Shown one piece after another: positions 39,490 to 47,970 of a stretch of 50,472 nt of DNA. Position numbers and translations under genes: made by a program. This DNA is from a virus (Duplodnaviria; Caudoviricetes): positions 1 to 50,472 of IMG/VR virus record IMGVR_UViG_3300038406_000147, one strand, 5' to 3'. The notes below the pieces were generated by a model. It did no database searches, was not told the origin of the DNA, and saw only the letters and a list, made by a program, of their open reading frames with translations. Position 1 is the stretch's first letter. Every line of letters begins with the position of its first letter.

Positions 39490-40641
39490 TCAGGCCCCCT
39501 TTCTCGCCCGGTCGAGATTTACCACCTGGGCCAGGTTCGTCGCTGGTGCGTCAGCAGCCCAGACCTCGCGGATCGCCTCGTGCGCGCCCGGCGCCAGGTG
39601 GGCGTAGCGCTGGGTGGTCGCATACGACTCATGGCCCAGCAGCGCCTGGACCCGGTAGAGGTCCACGCCGGCCATCACCAGCCAGCTGGCGGCGGTGTGG
39701 CGCAGGACGTGCGGCGGGTGCCGGGGGACGCCGGCGGCAGCCACCGCGGCGTACCAGCGCCGGCGCCAGTCCGAGTGCCAGGCCCGGGACTCGAAGACCA
39801 GGGCGTCGACCGGCCGGCCCCGGACCAGCGCGGCCAGGTCCAGCATGATCCGGTCCGGGACCGGGACGGTCCGGTGCGACCGGGCGGACTTCGGAACCGG
39901 CACGATGCCAGCCCGGGTCCGGACCTGCCAGACGTTGATCTCCCGGCGCAGCCAGTTGACGTGGTTGCCCGGGAGCCCGGCGAGCTCGCCGTATCGCAAC
40001 CCGACGTGCCCGGCCAGGTCGGCCATCACCGCCCAAGGCTGGCCGCCGGCGACCGCCCGGAGCGCAGCCACGATCGCGGCGTGCTCCTCGCGGGTGTACC
40101 AGACGATCCGGCCGGGCGGCACGGTCGGCAGGGCCAGGCCGGCGAACGGGCTGTCCAGCACCAGCGGCGGGCGCTCGGCCAGGGCCGCGGCGTACAAGCT
40201 GCTCATCACGGTGACGATCTGCTCGATCGTGGCCGGCGCCAGCAACCGGTCCAGCGGCCGGCCCCACCGACCGGTCACCCGGGTCTGCTCGAGCTGGCGG
40301 ACCCATCCCTGCGCCTCCATCCGAGTCACGTCAGCCAGCCGCCAGGCCGCCCACTTCGGCTCGCAGTGCGTCCGCCAGTAGGTCTCGAGCTTGCGGCGGG
40401 TGCCGGCAGCGACCACGTGCGCGGCCGACCAGCGGGCGTACCAGTCGCCCACCGTGACCCGGCCGGCCCGGGGATCCCGGGTTTCGCCCCGGGCGAACGC
40501 GGCCTCCTGCTCGCGCGCCCACTCCGTCACCACCTTTCGCAGCGGGTGGCTCTTGGTCAGCCGGTTCCGGCCGGGCGGCAGCCGGGGGTTGCGGACGGTG
40601 GCCTGCCAGCGGCCGGAAGGCAGGCGGCGCACGTAGGGCAT
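39490..40641 (-). CDS. int: tyrosine integrase
   Basis: GLRYGEL, PK, HVLRHTAASWL, LLGH, TQRY. Confidence 0.95.
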   Translation of the reverse strand: MPYVRRLPSGRWQATVRNPRLPPGRNRLTKSHPLRKVVTEWAREQEAAFARGETRDPRAGRVTVGDWYARWSAAHVVAAGTRRKLETYWRTHCEPKWAAWRLADVTRMEAQGWVRQLEQTRVTGRWGRPLDRLLAPATIEQIVTVMSSLYAAALAERPPLVLDSPFAGLALPTVPPGRIVWYTREEHAAIVAALRAVAGGQPWAVMADLAGHVGLRYGELAGLPGNHVNWLRREINVWQVRTRAGIVPVPKSARSHRTVPVPDRIMLDLAALVRGRPVDALVFESRAWHSDWRRRWYAAVAAAGVPRHPPHVLRHTAASWLVMAGVDLYRVQALLGHESYATTQRYAHLAPGAHEAIREVWAADAPATNLAQVVNLDRARKGA

Positions 40642-41045
40642 CAGCCGGCCGCCGCCCGGTCATCGTCGCCCAGCCGCCGGTTGATCGCGCGCAAGAAGTC
40701 GCGGATCATCTCCCGGTCGCGCTCGGGGGTGGCCGGGTCGCCCAGCCGACGCTGGAGCAGCGCCACCTCCGGGTCGGGCGGCACCTGGCGCCGGGGACGG
40801 ACCGCGGCGGCGCCAGGCCGGAGTCCGGCAGCGATCAGCGCCTCGTCGAGGTCGAGCCCGAGCGCGTCGGCGATCCGGATGACGATCTCCACACGCTCGG
40901 GCCGGGCCTCGCCGGCCTCATACCTGTAGATGGTGGCCCGGCCCACGCTGGCGGTCTTGGCCAGGCCGGCCGGGGTCAGGTCGGCGGCCCGGCGCGCGGC
41001 GCGCAAATATGCGGCCCACGTCGAGCCCAACGGAGTGTCTCGCAT
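40641..41045 (-). CDS. Xre-family immunity repressor
   Basis: LRAAR..LT..LA...VGRATIYRYEAG..P..IADAL. Confidence 0.85.
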   Translation of the reverse strand: MRDTPLGSTWAAYLRAARRAADLTPAGLAKTASVGRATIYRYEAGEARPERVEIVIRIADALGLDLDEALIAAGLRPGAAAVRPRRQVPPDPEVALLQRRLGDPATPERDREMIRDFLRAINRRLGDDDRAAAG

Positions 41046-41251
41046 AAGAGACAAGGTACGCGGCCGGCCGCGCGGACGTAACCCATCGCGGCGGGCGCGT
41101 CGGCGCCGGTAGCCCATAAAACTTAGGGTGCGTTGTCCCATATCCGAGACACTACCTGTCTCGTAGACGAGACAAATCAGCCGTTCGGATGACCCGTCCC
41201 ACTTGCGGGACGGTCCACTGTCGTGACAGTCTCAATCTCGTGACTGAGACA
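41036..41251. promoter_or_regulatory. Operators TGTCTC-N6-GAGACA (41036-41053, 41134-41151, 41157-41174, 41234-41251)
   Basis: four near-perfect 18-bp palindromes between the divergent repressor and cro-like genes. Confidence 0.8.
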
Positions 41252-41548
41252 ACCCAGGTGTCCGGAGGTGAGACACGTGCGTCCCTGAACTTCGCCAAGA
41301 TCAACGAGCGGTGCGCAGCGCTGGGCGCCACCACCGTCGCCCAGCGCTGCGCCTTACTGAAGGTCAGCCGGGCGCAGCTCTACCGCTGGCTCAGCGGCGC
41401 CAACGACATCACCACACGGCGCGCGCTAGACCTCGCCACCCGCCTGGACCTATCGCTGGCGGATGTCCTCGCGCCCCCGAAGCCGAAGCCGCCCAGCCAC
41501 CCACCGCCACAGCCGCGCCCACCGGCCGGCCCGAAGGGAACCTCATGA
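41240..41548 (+). CDS. Cro-like HTH protein (start uncertain)
   Basis: VSRAQLYRWLSG...LATRLDLSLADV; divergent from the repressor. Confidence 0.8.
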   Translation: MTETTQVSGGETRASLNFAKINERCAALGATTVAQRCALLKVSRAQLYRWLSGANDITTRRALDLATRLDLSLADVLAPPKPKPPSHPPPQPRPPAGPKGTS

Positions 41549-41946
41549 GCGCCTACCACCGCGTGCAAAATCGATGGTGGCCCGCATACGAAGTGGTGTT
41601 CAAGCTGATCAGGCAGCACCCTCCAGTATCCGATGGCGACTTCAACCGATCCCAAGAGAACGCACGGCTATGGATGGCCGTGGACGCAGCCCTGTCCGCG
41701 ATGCAGACCAACACTCCCGACCTTCCCGAAGGCGTCCCCGAGGAGATGTACCTGGTCAAGACTCACTACGCCACTGTTCCCGAGCTGGCCATCTCGATGG
41801 AGCACGTCCTCGCACTGATGACGCGGCGCAATACCGAGCCTGACGACCGTTACACCATCCTGCGCGTCCGGATCGTCGAGGCCACCCCTGTCGAGCTGAA
41901 GCTGGTTCCACGGGAGGTGTCCGATGAGCAAGAAGAAGCCGGTTGA
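41545..41946 (+). CDS. hypothetical protein
   Basis: ATGA overlap. Confidence 0.65.
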   Translation: MSAYHRVQNRWWPAYEVVFKLIRQHPPVSDGDFNRSQENARLWMAVDAALSAMQTNTPDLPEGVPEEMYLVKTHYATVPELAISMEHVLALMTRRNTEPDDRYTILRVRIVEATPVELKLVPREVSDEQEEAG

Positions 41947-42106
41947 CGGACACCCCGCAGGTCACCGGGGCACCGACCCCAAGAACAAGAAGGGGGACTG
42001 GTGGCCGACCCGAGAGCATGGGGCCGACACCGAGCACCAGGGCGGCCTCCCCAACCAGCGCCGGCCACCGATCGGCGACAACCTTGACGAGGAGCCGGCC
42101 AAGTGA
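41924..42106 (+). CDS. hypothetical protein
   Basis: GGAGG RBS. Confidence 0.5.
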   Translation: MSKKKPVDGHPAGHRGTDPKNKKGDWWPTREHGADTEHQGGLPNQRRPPIGDNLDEEPAK

Positions 42107-42297
42107 CTCCCCAGCTGCACTCGGTCGCCGAGGTCGCCAACCTGCTGTCCTGCACCCGGCAGCACATCTACAACCTAATCTCTCGTGGACAACTGTCCAC
42201 AGTGCACATCGGCATGGGGCGGGCGAAGACCCGGATCTCGGAGACCGAGCTGGCCACGTACATCAAGCGCCACACCACGAAGGAACCGGCACGATGA
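42103..42297 (+). CDS. excisionase-like HTH protein
   Basis: SVAEVANLL.CTRQHIYNLI.RGQL..TRI. Confidence 0.85.
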   Translation: MTPQLHSVAEVANLLSCTRQHIYNLISRGQLSTVHIGMGRAKTRISETELATYIKRHTTKEPAR

Positions 42298-42815
42298 GCA
42301 TCTACTTTGACCTCCGACAGCTGATCCACGAGACCGCCGCCGACCAGGACGAGTGGGATCTGGACGTACTGACCAAGATGGTCCACGACAACACCCCGCA
42401 CGACCAGCTCATCGAGGCGTACCGGCAGGCTCTGAAGCACGCCGTGCGCATCGAGCTGGGACAAGCTCCCCGGTCGGGACAGACTTCCACCGGCGCCGGC
42501 CAGACGGTAAGCGATACCCATGAACGGGTCACTGGCGCCGGTGGGACCAACCTGCGCAACTCCCGGGTCGCGCTGCTGCGCCGTTCCGGGTTCCGCGAGC
42601 GGGTCCACGTCGGGGAACGGACCTGGCTGCACATCGAGGAGTGCACGGCCCCGGACCTGCGCTACGCGGCCGACGAGTGCAACCGCATGGCCAAGGCCAA
42701 CGCCGCGGCCCAGCGCCGGTACAAGAAGCTGGCCGACCTGCTCGTGAAGCACAGCGTCGAGCGGGTCCGCGACCTGCCCGTGGACACACTGAGGGCGGTG
42801 TTCGGAAATGCGTAG
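42294..42815 (+). CDS. hypothetical protein upstream of Tas, containing one guide unit
   Basis: ATGA overlap; 173 aa. Confidence 0.75.
   Translation: MSIYFDLRQLIHETAADQDEWDLDVLTKMVHDNTPHDQLIEAYRQALKHAVRIELGQAPRSGQTSTGAGQTVSDTHERVTGAGGTNLRNSRVALLRRSGFRERVHVGERTWLHIEECTAPDLRYAADECNRMAKANAAAQRRYKKLADLLVKHSVERVRDLPVDTLRAVFGNA
42485..42546 (+). ncRNA. TIGR-like stem-loop guide unit (intragenic)
   Basis: stem-CCA-GACGGTAAG-CGATACCCA-TGAACGGGT-CA-stem. Confidence 0.8.
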
Positions 42816-44205
42816 CGCCCAGACCTCCTCGGAGACCAAACACCCAACGATACCCAGGGGAAGTCCGTCTCCGGGGACCAAGCTGCCCGGCCCCGACCAG
42901 CCGGGTCTCGACACCCAGGAAGATCACGTCGGGGCCGGGCACCCGGAGACCACGGAGCGTTCAACACCCATCATGGCGCCGCCTCTGGGGACCAAGCTGC
43001 CCGGCCCCGACCAAACATGTCTCGGTACTCAAAGGACGTCCATCGGGGCCGGGCGCCCGGAGACCAGGGGCAGGTCGACACCCACCGCCTCTCCGCCTCC
43101 AGCGCCCGGCCCCGACCAAACAGCCCGCCAGGCCCAACCATCGCGCGTCGGGGCCGGGCGCCCGGAGACCAGTAGAGCCGCGACACCCATCAGGTTGCCG
43201 TCTCCGGACATCAACGTGCCCGGCCCCGACCGTCTGGATCTCGATACCCACGCACGGAGCGTCGAGGCCGGGCACCCGGAGATCATGCCGGTACCGACAC
43301 CCATGACTGAATCATCTCCGGGCACCGACGTGCCCGGCCCCGACCGCGCGCGGCACGATACCCATAACATCTCCGTCGGGGCCGGGCCGACCCTCTACGA
43401 CCCCGGCTTGTACCTGCTGGCCGAGCAGCTAAACGCGATCGAGGACCTCCGGAAGGCCACGGCGAACCGGCTCCGGCAGGCCACGCGGAACACAGAGGAC
43501 AAGGACGGTGAGGTGCGGGGCCTCGGGCTCCCCGAGGACGCGCCGACCGTGCGCGCCACCGTGAACATGCTGGCCGGGCTGGACGCGATCGAGCACCAGG
43601 TGATCCTGGAGCTTCAGCGGGCGCTGCGCCGGCATCCGCTGAGCACATGGCAGAAGCGGACGGTCGGGGTGGGGGAGAAGCAGCTGGCCCGACTACTGTC
43701 CGCGATCGGCGACCCCTACTGGAACACCTTGCACGACCGGCCGCGCATCGTCTCAGAGCTGTGGGCGTACGCCGGCCTCCACACCATCCCCGCCGGCCAT
43801 GAAGCGCACGATACCCAGCCGCTCGCCGCCAACGGGGATAAGCCCGCCGCCCGCCCCCCGGACCATCCCGGCCACGGTACCCACGGCCGTTTCGTCCGGG
43901 TGGCGGCGCGGCGTAAGCGAGGAGAACGGTCGAACTGGTCGACGGAGGCCAAGACCCGGGCGTACCTGATTGCCGAGTCGTGCATCAAGCAGGCGGCCTC
44001 GCCGTACCGGACGGTCTACGACGGCCGGCGCACGGTCACCGCCGAGCGCGTCCACGCAGCCCCCTGCGTGCGCTGCGGCCCGTCCGGTAACCCGGCGGCG
44101 ACCGGCACGCCGTGGAGCCTGGGACATCAGCACGCGGACGGCCTACGAATCGTGTCGAAGACCCTGCTCCGGGACCTGTGGCGCGCAGCCCGTGATGCCC
44201 GATGA
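42808..44205 (+). CDS. TasA-like Nop/IS110-C-terminal-domain RNA-binding protein, no nuclease domain; ORF includes the array (alternative starts 43285, 43303)
   Basis: coiled coil (LRKATANRL), HPL..W...GVGEKQLARLL..IGD, SELWAYAGL, RRKRG..NW..AKTRAY.IAE, SPYR..YD, H..GLR..K.LL.DLW. Confidence 0.8.
   Translation: MRSAQTSSETKHPTIPRGSPSPGTKLPGPDQPGLDTQEDHVGAGHPETTERSTPIMAPPLGTKLPGPDQTCLGTQRTSIGAGRPETRGRSTPTASPPPAPGPDQTARQAQPSRVGAGRPETSRAATPIRLPSPDINVPGPDRLDLDTHARSVEAGHPEIMPVPTPMTESSPGTDVPGPDRARHDTHNISVGAGPTLYDPGLYLLAEQLNAIEDLRKATANRLRQATRNTEDKDGEVRGLGLPEDAPTVRATVNMLAGLDAIEHQVILELQRALRRHPLSTWQKRTVGVGEKQLARLLSAIGDPYWNTLHDRPRIVSELWAYAGLHTIPAGHEAHDTQPLAANGDKPAARPPDHPGHGTHGRFVRVAARRKRGERSNWSTEAKTRAYLIAESCIKQAASPYRTVYDGRRTVTAERVHAAPCVRCGPSGNPAATGTPWSLGHQHADGLRIVSKTLLRDLWRAARDAR
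42827..43387 (+). ncRNA. TIGR-like stem-loop array, 10 dual-spacer units
   Basis: each unit is stem-CCA-N9-CGAYACCCA-N9-C(G/A)-stem; 20 different 9-nt spacers; two alternating stem types. Confidence 0.88.
43786..43906 (+). ncRNA. two TIGR-like guide units inside the Tas Nop domain
   Basis: CCA-TGAAGCGCA-CGATACCCA-GCCGCTCGC-CG and CCA-TCCCGGCCA-CGGTACCCA-CGGCCGTTT-CG, each closed by a stem. Confidence 0.8.
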
Positions 44206-44762
44206 GCACGGTGACCATGGAGGCGTTCGTCGGCGCCCGCTGGATGCTGGACGGCGGCTGCATCGGTGAGGACCCGGAGCTGTTCTACCCCCACAAGCTC
44301 TCGCACCACCAGATCGAGACGGCCAAGAACATATGCAACACCCGGTGCCCGGTAATGGAGAGGTGCCGCAAGTGGGCGCGTTCCGTGCCCGAGCTGCACG
44401 GGGTGTGGGGTGGCGAATCCGAGGACGAGCGCCAGGCGTGGATTCGCGGCACCACCACAACCCGCCGCAGGCGCCACGCTGGCAGGCAGGACGCGAAGAT
44501 CTGCGAATACTGCGCCCAGCTGTTCATCTTCGAGGTTCACCGCAACCGCCCGCGCCGGTTCTGTAGTCCACAGTGCTACACCAGCTACGTCCGTCTGGAT
44601 CACGGAAGCGGCTCCGGCCCGTGCGGAACGGCCCGGGGTGCCTCACACCACCGGCGGCGGGGCGAGCGACCCTGCGCCGCCTGCCACCAGCGCGAGAACG
44701 AGGCCAGCAGGGTCAGGCAGCAACGCCGAGCCGCTCGACGACAAGCAGAGAGGGCGCCGTAA
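44202..44762 (+). CDS. whiB: WhiB-family regulator with C-terminal Cys-rich extension
   Basis: C..DPELFY, AK.IC..CPV...C, GVWGG.SE.ER; extra CxxC, FCSxxC and CGT..H.R.GE.PC..C. Confidence 0.9.
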   Translation: MSTVTMEAFVGARWMLDGGCIGEDPELFYPHKLSHHQIETAKNICNTRCPVMERCRKWARSVPELHGVWGGESEDERQAWIRGTTTTRRRRHAGRQDAKICEYCAQLFIFEVHRNRPRRFCSPQCYTSYVRLDHGSGSGPCGTARGASHHRRRGERPCAACHQRENEASRVRQQRRAARRQAERAP

Positions 44763-45151
44763 TGATCTACAGCCACTGCGAGGCCCACCCCGATCACTGT
44801 AACAACGACAACCGGCCAAAGATCGTCGTCCTTTGTGGCTCAACACGGTTCTACGAGCAGTACCAACAATCCAACTACAACGAAACCATGGCCGGTCGGA
44901 TCGTCCTGTCGGTGGGCTTCTATCCACACGCCAAGGCGGAGCACGGTCACGGTGAAGGCGTCGGTCACGACTCGATCGAGAAGGTCGAGCTGGACAAGCT
45001 GCACAAACGCAAGATCGACCTTGCTGACGAGGTGCTAGTGCTGAACGTCGGTGGCTACATCGGCGACTCCACCCGCAGCGAGGTCATGTACGCAATCTAC
45101 CGAGGCAAGCCCATCCGCTGGCTAGAAGAAGCAGAAAGGACACCAGAATGA
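44762..45151 (+). CDS. nucleoside 2-deoxyribosyltransferase-like protein
   Basis: VVLCGSTRF, H.RKIDLADEVLVLNVGGYIGDST.SE. Confidence 0.65.
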   Translation: MIYSHCEAHPDHCNNDNRPKIVVLCGSTRFYEQYQQSNYNETMAGRIVLSVGFYPHAKAEHGHGEGVGHDSIEKVELDKLHKRKIDLADEVLVLNVGGYIGDSTRSEVMYAIYRGKPIRWLEEAERTPE

Positions 45152-45564
45152 TCACCAACCTCATCACCTTCAGCGTGTTCCTGGCCCTGGGCTCCCTGTG
45201 GTGGTGGTCCGGCCGGGTCAACGCCGCGCGACAAATTGAGGAAGTCCGGATCACCGCCGGCGCGGACCTGCTGGCGGCCCTGCCGGACCGGGACGAGCGC
45301 TGCCCCACCTGCACTGGCACGCGCTGCTGGGACTGGCGCCACCACGGCGCCCCCTGCCTCCCGGACACCAGCGCCGACCTGCCCGAGCTGGCCACCGCCG
45401 GCGGCCGACACGAGCCCACCCCGGCCTTCGCGTACGCGGTGCCCGGCCGGTGGAACCCGCTCCCCCTGAGGCAGCGGGTAAGGCTGGCCCCGACCGCGTG
45501 GGCAGCCCGCCTGGGCCGGCCCGTGCAGCTCGGCCTGGGCCGGGCCATCGGCGGCATCGCGTAA
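45148..45564 (+). CDS. membrane-anchored hypothetical protein
   Basis: N-terminal TM; CxxC. Confidence 0.55.
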   Translation: MITNLITFSVFLALGSLWWWSGRVNAARQIEEVRITAGADLLAALPDRDERCPTCTGTRCWDWRHHGAPCLPDTSADLPELATAGGRHEPTPAFAYAVPGRWNPLPLRQRVRLAPTAWAARLGRPVQLGLGRAIGGIA

Positions 45565-46268: not shown

Positions 46269-47068
46269 TGGTCTCTGTCGCCGAGTTCATGACCGCCGCG
46301 CCGGCGCCGCTCAACGGCAACTCGCCCTGGGCGGCCCGGTACGCGGTCGAGCTGCGGCGGGTGATCACCGAGTACGCCAACAACCGGCCCCGCAACCTCC
46401 AGAAGCACCTGGGACCCAGCGAGCTCGGCTCACCGTGCGACCGGCAGGTGGCGGGGAAGATGGCCGGGCTGCCGGCGACCAACCACGTCGTCGACCCGTG
46501 GCCCAGCTTCGTGGGCACCGCGCTGCACGCCGAGGAAGCCAAGGCGTTCGAGTGGGACAACACGCAGACCGGGTTACTCCGTTGGGTCGCCGAGCAACGG
46601 GTCACCCCACACCCGGACCACCCGGGCACCGGTGACCTGTACGACGGCCTGGAGGAGGCCGTGGTGGACCACAAGAACCTGGGTCTCACCTCGATGGCGA
46701 AGGTCCGCTCCAGTGACGGGCCACCACTTCGCTACCAGATCCAACTTCTGTTGTACGGCAAGGGTTTCCGACTGATGGGCCTGCCCGTAAAGCGGGTTGT
46801 CCTTGCCGCCTACCCGCGAGCCGCCGCCACCCTGGACGGGATGTTCGTCTGGGAGCGGCTGGCCCGTCCCGATGACGATCTGCTGCTGGAGGAGGTGTTC
46901 AAGCTTACCGCCGCGCGCCAGGTCATGGCCAACCAAATCCTATCTGGACAACTGACACTGAACGACATTCCGAAGCGCGCGGATGACGATGAGTGCTACT
47001 TCTGCCCGTTCTACCGACCGCAGTCCGCACGAGACAACGGTCCCGGATGCCCCGGGACCACCACATAG
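46268..47068 (+). CDS. PD-(D/E)XK (Cas4-like) exonuclease
   Basis: GPSELG..CDR, GTALH, GTGD, VVDHK, QLLLYG, C.FCPF. Confidence 0.85.
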   Translation: MVSVAEFMTAAPAPLNGNSPWAARYAVELRRVITEYANNRPRNLQKHLGPSELGSPCDRQVAGKMAGLPATNHVVDPWPSFVGTALHAEEAKAFEWDNTQTGLLRWVAEQRVTPHPDHPGTGDLYDGLEEAVVDHKNLGLTSMAKVRSSDGPPLRYQIQLLLYGKGFRLMGLPVKRVVLAAYPRAAATLDGMFVWERLARPDDDLLLEEVFKLTAARQVMANQILSGQLTLNDIPKRADDDECYFCPFYRPQSARDNGPGCPGTTT

Positions 47069-47078
47069 AGGAGTTCTG

Positions 47079-47891
47079 ATGACTTACCCGCAGTACCCAC
47101 AGACACCCGTGCAATATCCACAGGCACCAGTGGCCTACCCACCGCAGCCTCAGTACCCGGTGCAGCCTCAGTACCAGCAGTACCCGGTGCAGCCTGCGGC
47201 TCCGGCCGGCCCACCAGCACCACCCGGTTCCCTGGACACGTTCTACGCACAGCCCAGCGCGGCCAACCTGGCCTGGAAGTTCAAGGACGCCCCGATCGGC
47301 ACGAGCTACGCCGGCATCGTGGCCCGAACCCTGCTCGACTCGGACGTTCGCGCGCAGACCGACTCCGGCGGCAACGTCCAGCGGTTCAAGGACGGCCGAA
47401 TCAAGTACGTCATGGTGGTCCCGATGCTGGTCCGCGGCGCGCCGGAGTTCCCGGACGGCCAGGCCAGTTGGTGGGTCAAGGGTCAGGCCCGCGACGAGCT
47501 GGCCCGCGCCATGGCGGAGGCCGGCGCACCAGCCGGTACCCCGGAGGCAGGCGCGGCCATCCGGGTGACACTGGTCAGCCGCCGGCCGGTGCCGGGCATG
47601 AACGCCGCGCACGTGTACCAGATCCAGTACCAGCGGCCTGCCGGAGCACCCCCGGCACCCGCTCAGCCCGTGCCGGTCCAGCCGGTCCAGCCGGTCCAGC
47701 AGCCGGCGAACGTAGGGCCGGTGTGGCAGCCGGGTGAACCGGTCCAGCAGCCGGTGCAGCAGCCGGTGCAGCAGCCGGTGCAGCAGCCGGTGCAGCAGCC
47801 GGTGCAGCAGCCGGCCATGGTGGCACCGAGCAACCTGAGCCCGGAACAGCAGGAGCTGCTGGCCAAGCTCACCGGCCAGACCACCGGCTGA
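47079..47891 (+). CDS. probable ssDNA-binding/recombination protein with Q/P-rich termini
   Basis: WKF..IGT.Y.G.V core; position between exonuclease and helicase. Confidence 0.6.
   Translation: MTYPQYPQTPVQYPQAPVAYPPQPQYPVQPQYQQYPVQPAAPAGPPAPPGSLDTFYAQPSAANLAWKFKDAPIGTSYAGIVARTLLDSDVRAQTDSGGNVQRFKDGRIKYVMVVPMLVRGAPEFPDGQASWWVKGQARDELARAMAEAGAPAGTPEAGAAIRVTLVSRRPVPGMNAAHVYQIQYQRPAGAPPAPAQPVPVQPVQPVQQPANVGPVWQPGEPVQQPVQQPVQQPVQQPVQQPVQQPAMVAPSNLSPEQQELLAKLTGQTTG
47745..47814 (+). repeat. 12-bp coding tandem repeat (QQPV)
   Basis: CAGCAGCCGGTG x5 plus a partial copy. Confidence 0.9.
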
Positions 47892-47903
47892 GCGGGCGAA
47901 CGT

Positions 47904-47929
47904 CCGGCCCGTGGGAACGCACGGGCCGG
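47904..47929 (+). terminator. hairpin after the SSB-like gene
   Basis: CCGGCCCGTG-GGAACG-CACGGGCCGG. Confidence 0.55.
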
Positions 47930-47970
47930 GCCTTGACTCTCTCAGCCACACCCCACTTAGGAGACAGAAC

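Follow-up and report, generated by a model that had tools for sequence, protein, structure and literature searches.

Two guide-RNA units in frame within the wedge loop of a phage TasA

The systems closest to the locus studied here are the stem-loop TIGR arrays of TasA proteins, small DNA binders guided by RNA. In the main text of their September 2026 preprint, Xu et al. (bioRxiv 10.64898/2026.09.09.750476) describe such arrays inside the tas gene, at its 5′ end, at its 3′ end or internally, and report that the intragenic arrays are in frame and in disordered regions. For BlTasA of Bifidobacterium longum, tigRNAs embedded in the coding sequence were found by pull-down small-RNA sequencing, and according to a figure legend the BlTasA wedge loop overlaps two tigRNA regions. 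The wedge is defined in that study as G210-K230 of TaTasR, and it contacts tigRNA in the solved structures. The authors report repression by TasA and propose that tigRNA maturation and translation are coupled, but they point out that, above all for the internal array, processing and independent transcription cannot be told apart from their data. A CUU at the stem base is frequent in their units without being universal, and autoregulation is not mentioned in their main text. The placement of tigRNAs in the wedge loop is thus already known from this preprint on a related TasA. A second relative, PlTasA (Faure et al., 2025, PMC12045711; Guan et al., 10.64898/2026.08.11.744272), is described as a solo Nop-domain protein whose units hold two spacers of about 9 nt between box C/D motifs and are closed by a stem. 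Processed unit RNAs bound to Tas are known for both BlTasA (10.64898/2026.09.09.750476) and PlTasA (PMC12045711).

A temperate-phage locus with a nuclease-less TasA

The stretch analysed, here called the window, is a virus record of 50,472 bases. It carries genes for a tyrosine integrase (39490-40641, minus strand), an HTH_31 repressor-like protein (40641-41141, minus strand) and an HTH_17 excisionase-like protein (42103-42297, plus strand), which is a temperate-phage context, and a WhiB-family gene (44202..44762, plus strand) that overlaps the Tas stop and suggests an actinobacterial host. As the named relatives are almost all Actinomycetota, we infer from these together that the window belongs to a temperate, probably actinobacterial phage. 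The TasA reading frame (42808..44205, plus strand) encodes 465 aa when counted from an ATG that overlaps the upstream stop, its putative start, and the genes around it overlap in operon fashion. The main array, in which two stem types alternate over 10 stem-loop units, occupies the 5′ part of this frame (42824..43387, plus strand) with no stop codon, vs one and three in the other frames, and the Nop domain begins at about 43387. Two further units lie in the wedge loop, and one more unit, closed by a stem of 15 perfect bp (42485..42546, plus strand, CCA at 42500), is in frame within the upstream reading frame 42294-42815, for which no Pfam match was found. Thus, 12 of the 13 TIGR units at the locus are inside the Tas frame, the thirteenth is inside the upstream gene, and all 13 are coding sequence. 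Further downstream, a 12-nt tandem repeat (47727-47822) encodes the Q/P/V tail of the reading frame 46983-47891 and is followed by a 28-nt inverted repeat (47886-47947).

No Pfam family was matched by the 465-aa product at E 0.1, and PF02371 was reached only at E 0.01-0.06 in three homologues with empty loops. A profile built from 30 sequences, on the other hand, matches TaTasR (9MTY, E 2.3e-19) and TasH (E 1.4e-10). The first ~190 aa of the product are array sequence read as protein, and the structural model of the remainder, with a mean pLDDT of 78.5 and low confidence at residues 132-183 and in a short segment at 113-118, matches TasH best (Z 15.8, rmsd 3.5, 199 aligned), then TasR (Z 15.3) and then IS621 (Z 11.9), aligning only to the coiled coil and CTD of Tas. 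Profile and fold matches agree on a Nop-domain Tas fold with coiled coil, and since no nuclease domain was detected we class the protein as a TasA. It also contains an H-x3-C-x2-C motif followed by a later histidine (window 44040-44120; H223, C227, C230 and H247, invariant in the 30 sequences), which is possibly a zinc site that TaTasR lacks.

Anatomy of the wedge-loop units

Our analysis confirms that two guide-RNA hairpins lie in frame within a predicted disordered loop of this TasA. The loop between the WAYAGL and NWS motifs (43780..43932, plus strand; 51 aa) is the equivalent of the TaTasR wedge: the profile alignment places the insert between TaTasR residues 213 and 219, and pLDDT is below 50 at residues 132-183 of the modelled protein P0001, a value that predicts disorder, while the fold around the loop is preserved. 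Both units, which lie within 43786-43903, follow the TIGR plan of CCA, a 9-nt spacer, CGRTACCCA, a second 9-nt spacer and CG, closed by a stem, so that each has two variable spacers in the 8-12 nt range between box C/D motifs. Unit 1 (43786..43839, plus strand) has its stem at 43786-43796 / 43829-43839, box C CCA at 43797, spacer A at 43800-43808, the loop at 43809-43817, spacer B at 43818-43826 and CG at 43827-43828; 9 of its 11 stem positions pair, with a 2x2 internal loop. Unit 2 (43854..43903, plus strand) has CCA at 43863, spacer A at 43866-43874, the loop at 43875-43883, spacer B at 43884-43892 and CG at 43893-43894, and is closed by six perfect pairs (43857-43862 / 43895-43900) that can be extended to 43854-43903; 5 bp can form between its two spacers.

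Both units had been reported by the sequence-only reading, and both are present as it quoted them, with the frame open. It had placed them at 43786..43906, of which the start holds and the end overshoots its own second unit by a few bases, and had described a translated loop of ~40 aa. As unit-free homologues have 12-25 aa between WAYAGL and NWS, that figure is right for the insert (about 35-40 aa) and too small for the whole loop.

The units are not explained by chance. When the core pattern was searched with at most one mismatch, 12 matches were found in the window vs 0.18 ± 0.54 in 100 shuffles; ten of these fall within 42500-43894 and the other two are isolated matches on the minus strand, and both wedge cores agree with the array motif at every position. 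Each wedge unit folds as a separate hairpin of modest stability (z −2.2 and −2.5), vs −4.9 and −2.6 for two units of the main array. As had been remarked before, the stems are unlike those of the main array, with which they have 8-11 and 7-12 of 18 letters in common, vs 13-18 within one array stem type.

The window shares with BlTasA a nuclease-less TasA, a stem-loop array, two tigRNA regions in the wedge loop, an intact frame, a disordered region and a proposed link of maturation to translation, as far as the main text and legends of Xu et al. describe them. It differs in its CCA and CG boxes, in the absence of CUU at the wedge stem bases and in having all 13 units within coding sequence. In PlTasA, by contrast, the array consists of three subarrays that are processed to single units, and the published accounts in their main parts describe no wedge-loop units (PMC12045711; 10.64898/2026.08.11.744272).

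A more distant comparison is with IS110 enzymes, in which the corresponding loop, as the earlier interpretation stated, carries the catalytic SG serine. IS621 has a related Tnp/Nop fold (Z 11.9, rmsd 3.4, 165 aligned), and its S241-G242 is located in a loop of the Tnp domain (PMC11208158) that aligns with the wedge loop. In a MAFFT alignment the IS110 SG falls in the wedge-loop position; of eight IS110 loci seven could be parsed, and five of these proteins have SG and two SA. The remark was therefore right about the position. It does not extend to the serine, as SG is absent from the window loop and occurs, among 51 empty Tas loops, in only 4, at varying positions. We accordingly reject a catalytic serine here. 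The window TasA also lacks the N-terminal DEDD/RuvC domain of IS110, its N-terminus being array-derived and without Pfam match, and it has an array of single units in place of a bridge RNA. The IS110 likeness is without functional consequence for this protein.

Whole-unit variation and RNA-level constraint among homologues

Aligning homologues had been proposed as a check on whether the loop varies by whole units, and it does. In a protein survey of the best 120 of 1407 matches together with the query, 118 proteins could be anchored, with loops of 12-16 aa (3 proteins), 32-38 aa (12), 47-53 aa (93) and 68-72 aa (8) and two that were mis-anchored, so that 116 of the 118 follow a whole-unit ladder. 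The DNA survey covered 197 loci and the window (198 in all), of which 189 were anchored, with 146 distinct loops, and three of the remaining nine were re-anchored afterwards; the 146 loops include near-copies, and the loci were chosen for an open frame. Across the 146 loops the length is 16.6 aa plus 18.1 aa per unit (r = 0.97), from none to five units: 54 loops have none (51 count as empty), 19 have one, 49 two, 18 three, 3 four and 3 five. They contain 198 units, compared with 7.1 (maximum 16) in codon shuffles, which again rejects a chance origin, and 194 of the 198 are in one common codon phase.

A FastTree of the protein core, labelled by loop length, retained 134 rows after 12 of the 146 were dropped because their cores were short or identical or, in nine cases, because they were near-copies. 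Unit presence changes 24 times on this tree, and 12 of the changes are forced by well-supported branches, gain and loss being indistinguishable. In the clade of the window all seven rows have units, and the window insert is therefore inherited and not recent. The two units might also be inherited but decaying relics, tolerated and no longer loaded, and the imperfect stem of unit 1, the self-pairing spacers of unit 2 and the missing CUU motif point that way. Against this, both cores are perfect to consensus, the units are kept throughout the clade, and relatives replace spacers at these same positions (see below). We consider it very unlikely that the two units are such relics.

The constraint on the loop is exerted on the RNA and not on the peptide. 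For this, 196 units were picked again by codon positions 1 and 2 only. The four box cytosines that fall at four-fold degenerate sites are C in 90, 93, 98 and 92% of these units, vs 52% in the protein core, and the third positions of the spacers are near uniform, with the host codon bias lost. His and Gln swap freely (91/89 and 83/113), and 195 of the 196 spacer pairs are distinct. Stem positions are paired in 178-188 of the 196 units, vs 89-166 when shuffled, with several types of pair per position, although the shuffle ignores relatedness. Between loci with 80-90% identity of the core DNA (43 unit pairs), spacer identity is 0.31-0.35 and stem identity 0.78, and in three pairs at 90-91% core identity every spacer has changed. 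As the spacers diverge while core and stems are kept, they have been rewritten in place within coding DNA. One pair of loci, L078 and L092, has core DNA that is 98.9% identical, and in a wedge unit spacer A is identical while spacer B agrees at 4 of 9 positions, a candidate for a recent replacement of a single spacer. Fixed box letters at synonymous sites, pairing stems and replaced spacers together place the constraint on the RNA, and it is likely that the same DNA serves as protein code and as guide. Part of what would have refuted the sequence-only reading was a loop conserved in its amino acids in place of boxes and stems; it is the boxes and stems that are conserved.

These data also bear on whether the insert is kept for its peptide, as a functional loop like the serine loop of IS110, or is spliced out before translation. 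In favor of a functional peptide, the wedge loop takes the position of the IS110 SG loop, and solved structures show the wedge in contact with tigRNA. Yet SG is missing, disorder is predicted for the loop, and the conservation is at synonymous sites, which excludes an amino-acid-level explanation of the loop. A single codon phase in 194 of 198 units is expected of read-through and argues against splicing. Both forms of this explanation are largely refuted, and we give them hardly any credence.

Arrays open in the Tas frame, proposed guide production and possible feedback

Signs of translation through units are not confined to the wedge. In 69 of 82 loci the Tas frame runs open through the 5′ array, vs 14 and 12 for the other two frames. 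In-frame units avoid one codon phase (14 of 509 units in the 5′ part and 0 of 202 wedge units), whereas the three phases are equally frequent among non-coding units; the risk of a stop codon alone (18.5% vs 12-13%) is insufficient to explain this. Of 250 units placed so that the rare codon ATA would be read in frame, 9 contain it, vs 63 of 276 non-coding units. Wedge units are present in 57 of the 69 loci with an in-frame 5′ array vs 6 of the 13 without one (uncorrected for kinship), and only 7 of the 82 loci have neither. The suggestion that units spread into permissive protein loops is supported as well, by units in a second internal loop in two loci, in C-terminal tails and in the upstream gene.

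Some individual loci are worth recording. In L139 and L191 the second internal loop is in the Nop domain, about 27 aa past NWS, and the C-terminal tail of L174 looks like a duplicate of the entire wedge cassette, flanking peptide motifs included. A Tas homologue of Nocardia suismassiliense (L117:2501-4372; NZ_LT985366.1) is interrupted at the cysteine of WAYCG, immediately ahead of the wedge loop, by an intein of ~350 aa that includes a LAGLIDADG-like domain (Pfam Intein_splicing, 3e-11; Hint; LAGLIDADG_3), and the peptide pattern suggests that this wedge loop holds two units.

We favor the reading, to which we give a probability of about 80%, that the wedge units are stem-loop TIGR modules of a nuclease-less TasA that yield guides for binding of 18 bp of DNA and transcriptional silencing. 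By analogy with BlTasA, PlTasA and MbTasA, a transcript of the early operon would be both message and guide precursor. Copies that remain uncut would be translated into TasA, and others would be cut back at the bases of their stems to guides of ~55 nt, the probable enzyme being a host RNase, and so be lost as messages. A TasA dimer with a single-hairpin guide would then occupy an 18-bp stretch of DNA and prevent transcription, as the main accounts of Xu, Faure, Guan et al. indicate for relatives. In a compact genome the wedge loop would be one permissive site among several at which guides can be accommodated, and the peptide encoded there would be a by-product.

Targets of these guides did not stand out in our searches. 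The 13 units of the window had no match in the window with fewer than 3 mismatches in the expected order, and 1004 units of homologues gave no excess of targets in the window over control orders. Of 989 distinct spacer pairs searched against 1.89 Mb (100 related-phage stretches and the window), none matched exactly and 7 matched with one mismatch, vs 3, 5 and 11 in the controls.

The loss of messages assumes that guides are cut from the Tas transcript. They could instead be transcribed from an internal promoter, in which case the Tas message would not be consumed, and the caveat of Xu et al. about independent transcription applies here too. The genes overlap in operon fashion, however, and no sigma-70-like site was found in 41000-45200, in a scan that is weak for actinobacterial promoters; we regard an internal promoter as quite unlikely. 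As to processing signals, the CUU motif of Xu et al., absent at both wedge stems of the window, was found near only 40 of 202 homologous wedge units. The missing motif, the lack of a target signal and the imperfect hairpins weigh against the reading that we favor.

As every unit is in coding sequence, excision from the mRNA would cost a message, and barring internal promoters the outputs of guide and protein are likely coupled. This could be taken further, namely that negative autoregulation is what selection has favored: free TasA would bind the wedge units on nascent mRNA, and cutting or occlusion would stop synthesis and match protein to guides. It would accord with the coding position of all 13 units, each excision of which would destroy a message, with the frequency of open 5′ arrays and the scarcity of loci that have neither kind of in-frame unit, and with the coupling raised by Xu et al. 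Yet 51 of 146 loops are empty, unit presence changes 24 times on the tree with 12 changes forced, and wedge units co-occur with in-frame 5′ arrays and do not substitute for them (kinship again uncorrected). Moreover, wedge spacers turn over as targeting guides do, although turnover would be superfluous in an element that served feedback alone, and the window's units have no self-target in the phage DNA. We therefore find selection for autoregulation unlikely, and under the guide-module reading any feedback on the level of TasA would likely be a side effect.

A bolder proposal, doubtful but worth stating, is that tas is a self-titrating RNA, in which TasA recognises units on its own message, among them the ones in its guide-gripping loop, and maturation destroys that message, combined with an acquisition process that rewrites single 9-nt spacers inside the gene and is filtered for an open frame. 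If this were true, near-identical pairs such as L078 and L092 would be a direct handle on TIGR spacer acquisition.

What is new here is comparative, namely the ladder of 0-5 units, the conservation at synonymous sites, the avoided codon phase and the in-place exchange of spacers. The ladder, the phase bias and the turnover of spacers within the gene do not appear in the main text of Xu et al.; their figures or supplements may contain them. For those who build tools it is relevant that, as natural loops of 12-16 aa indicate, TasA can probably do without the wedge insert and the array-derived N-terminus, which would leave a core of ~235 aa. Dual coding is clear in a guide that is stored within the code of its own effector and whose spacers are rewritten with the frame kept open. 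Such a case bears on two questions about TIGR systems, guide maturation in stem-loop arrays and spacer acquisition.
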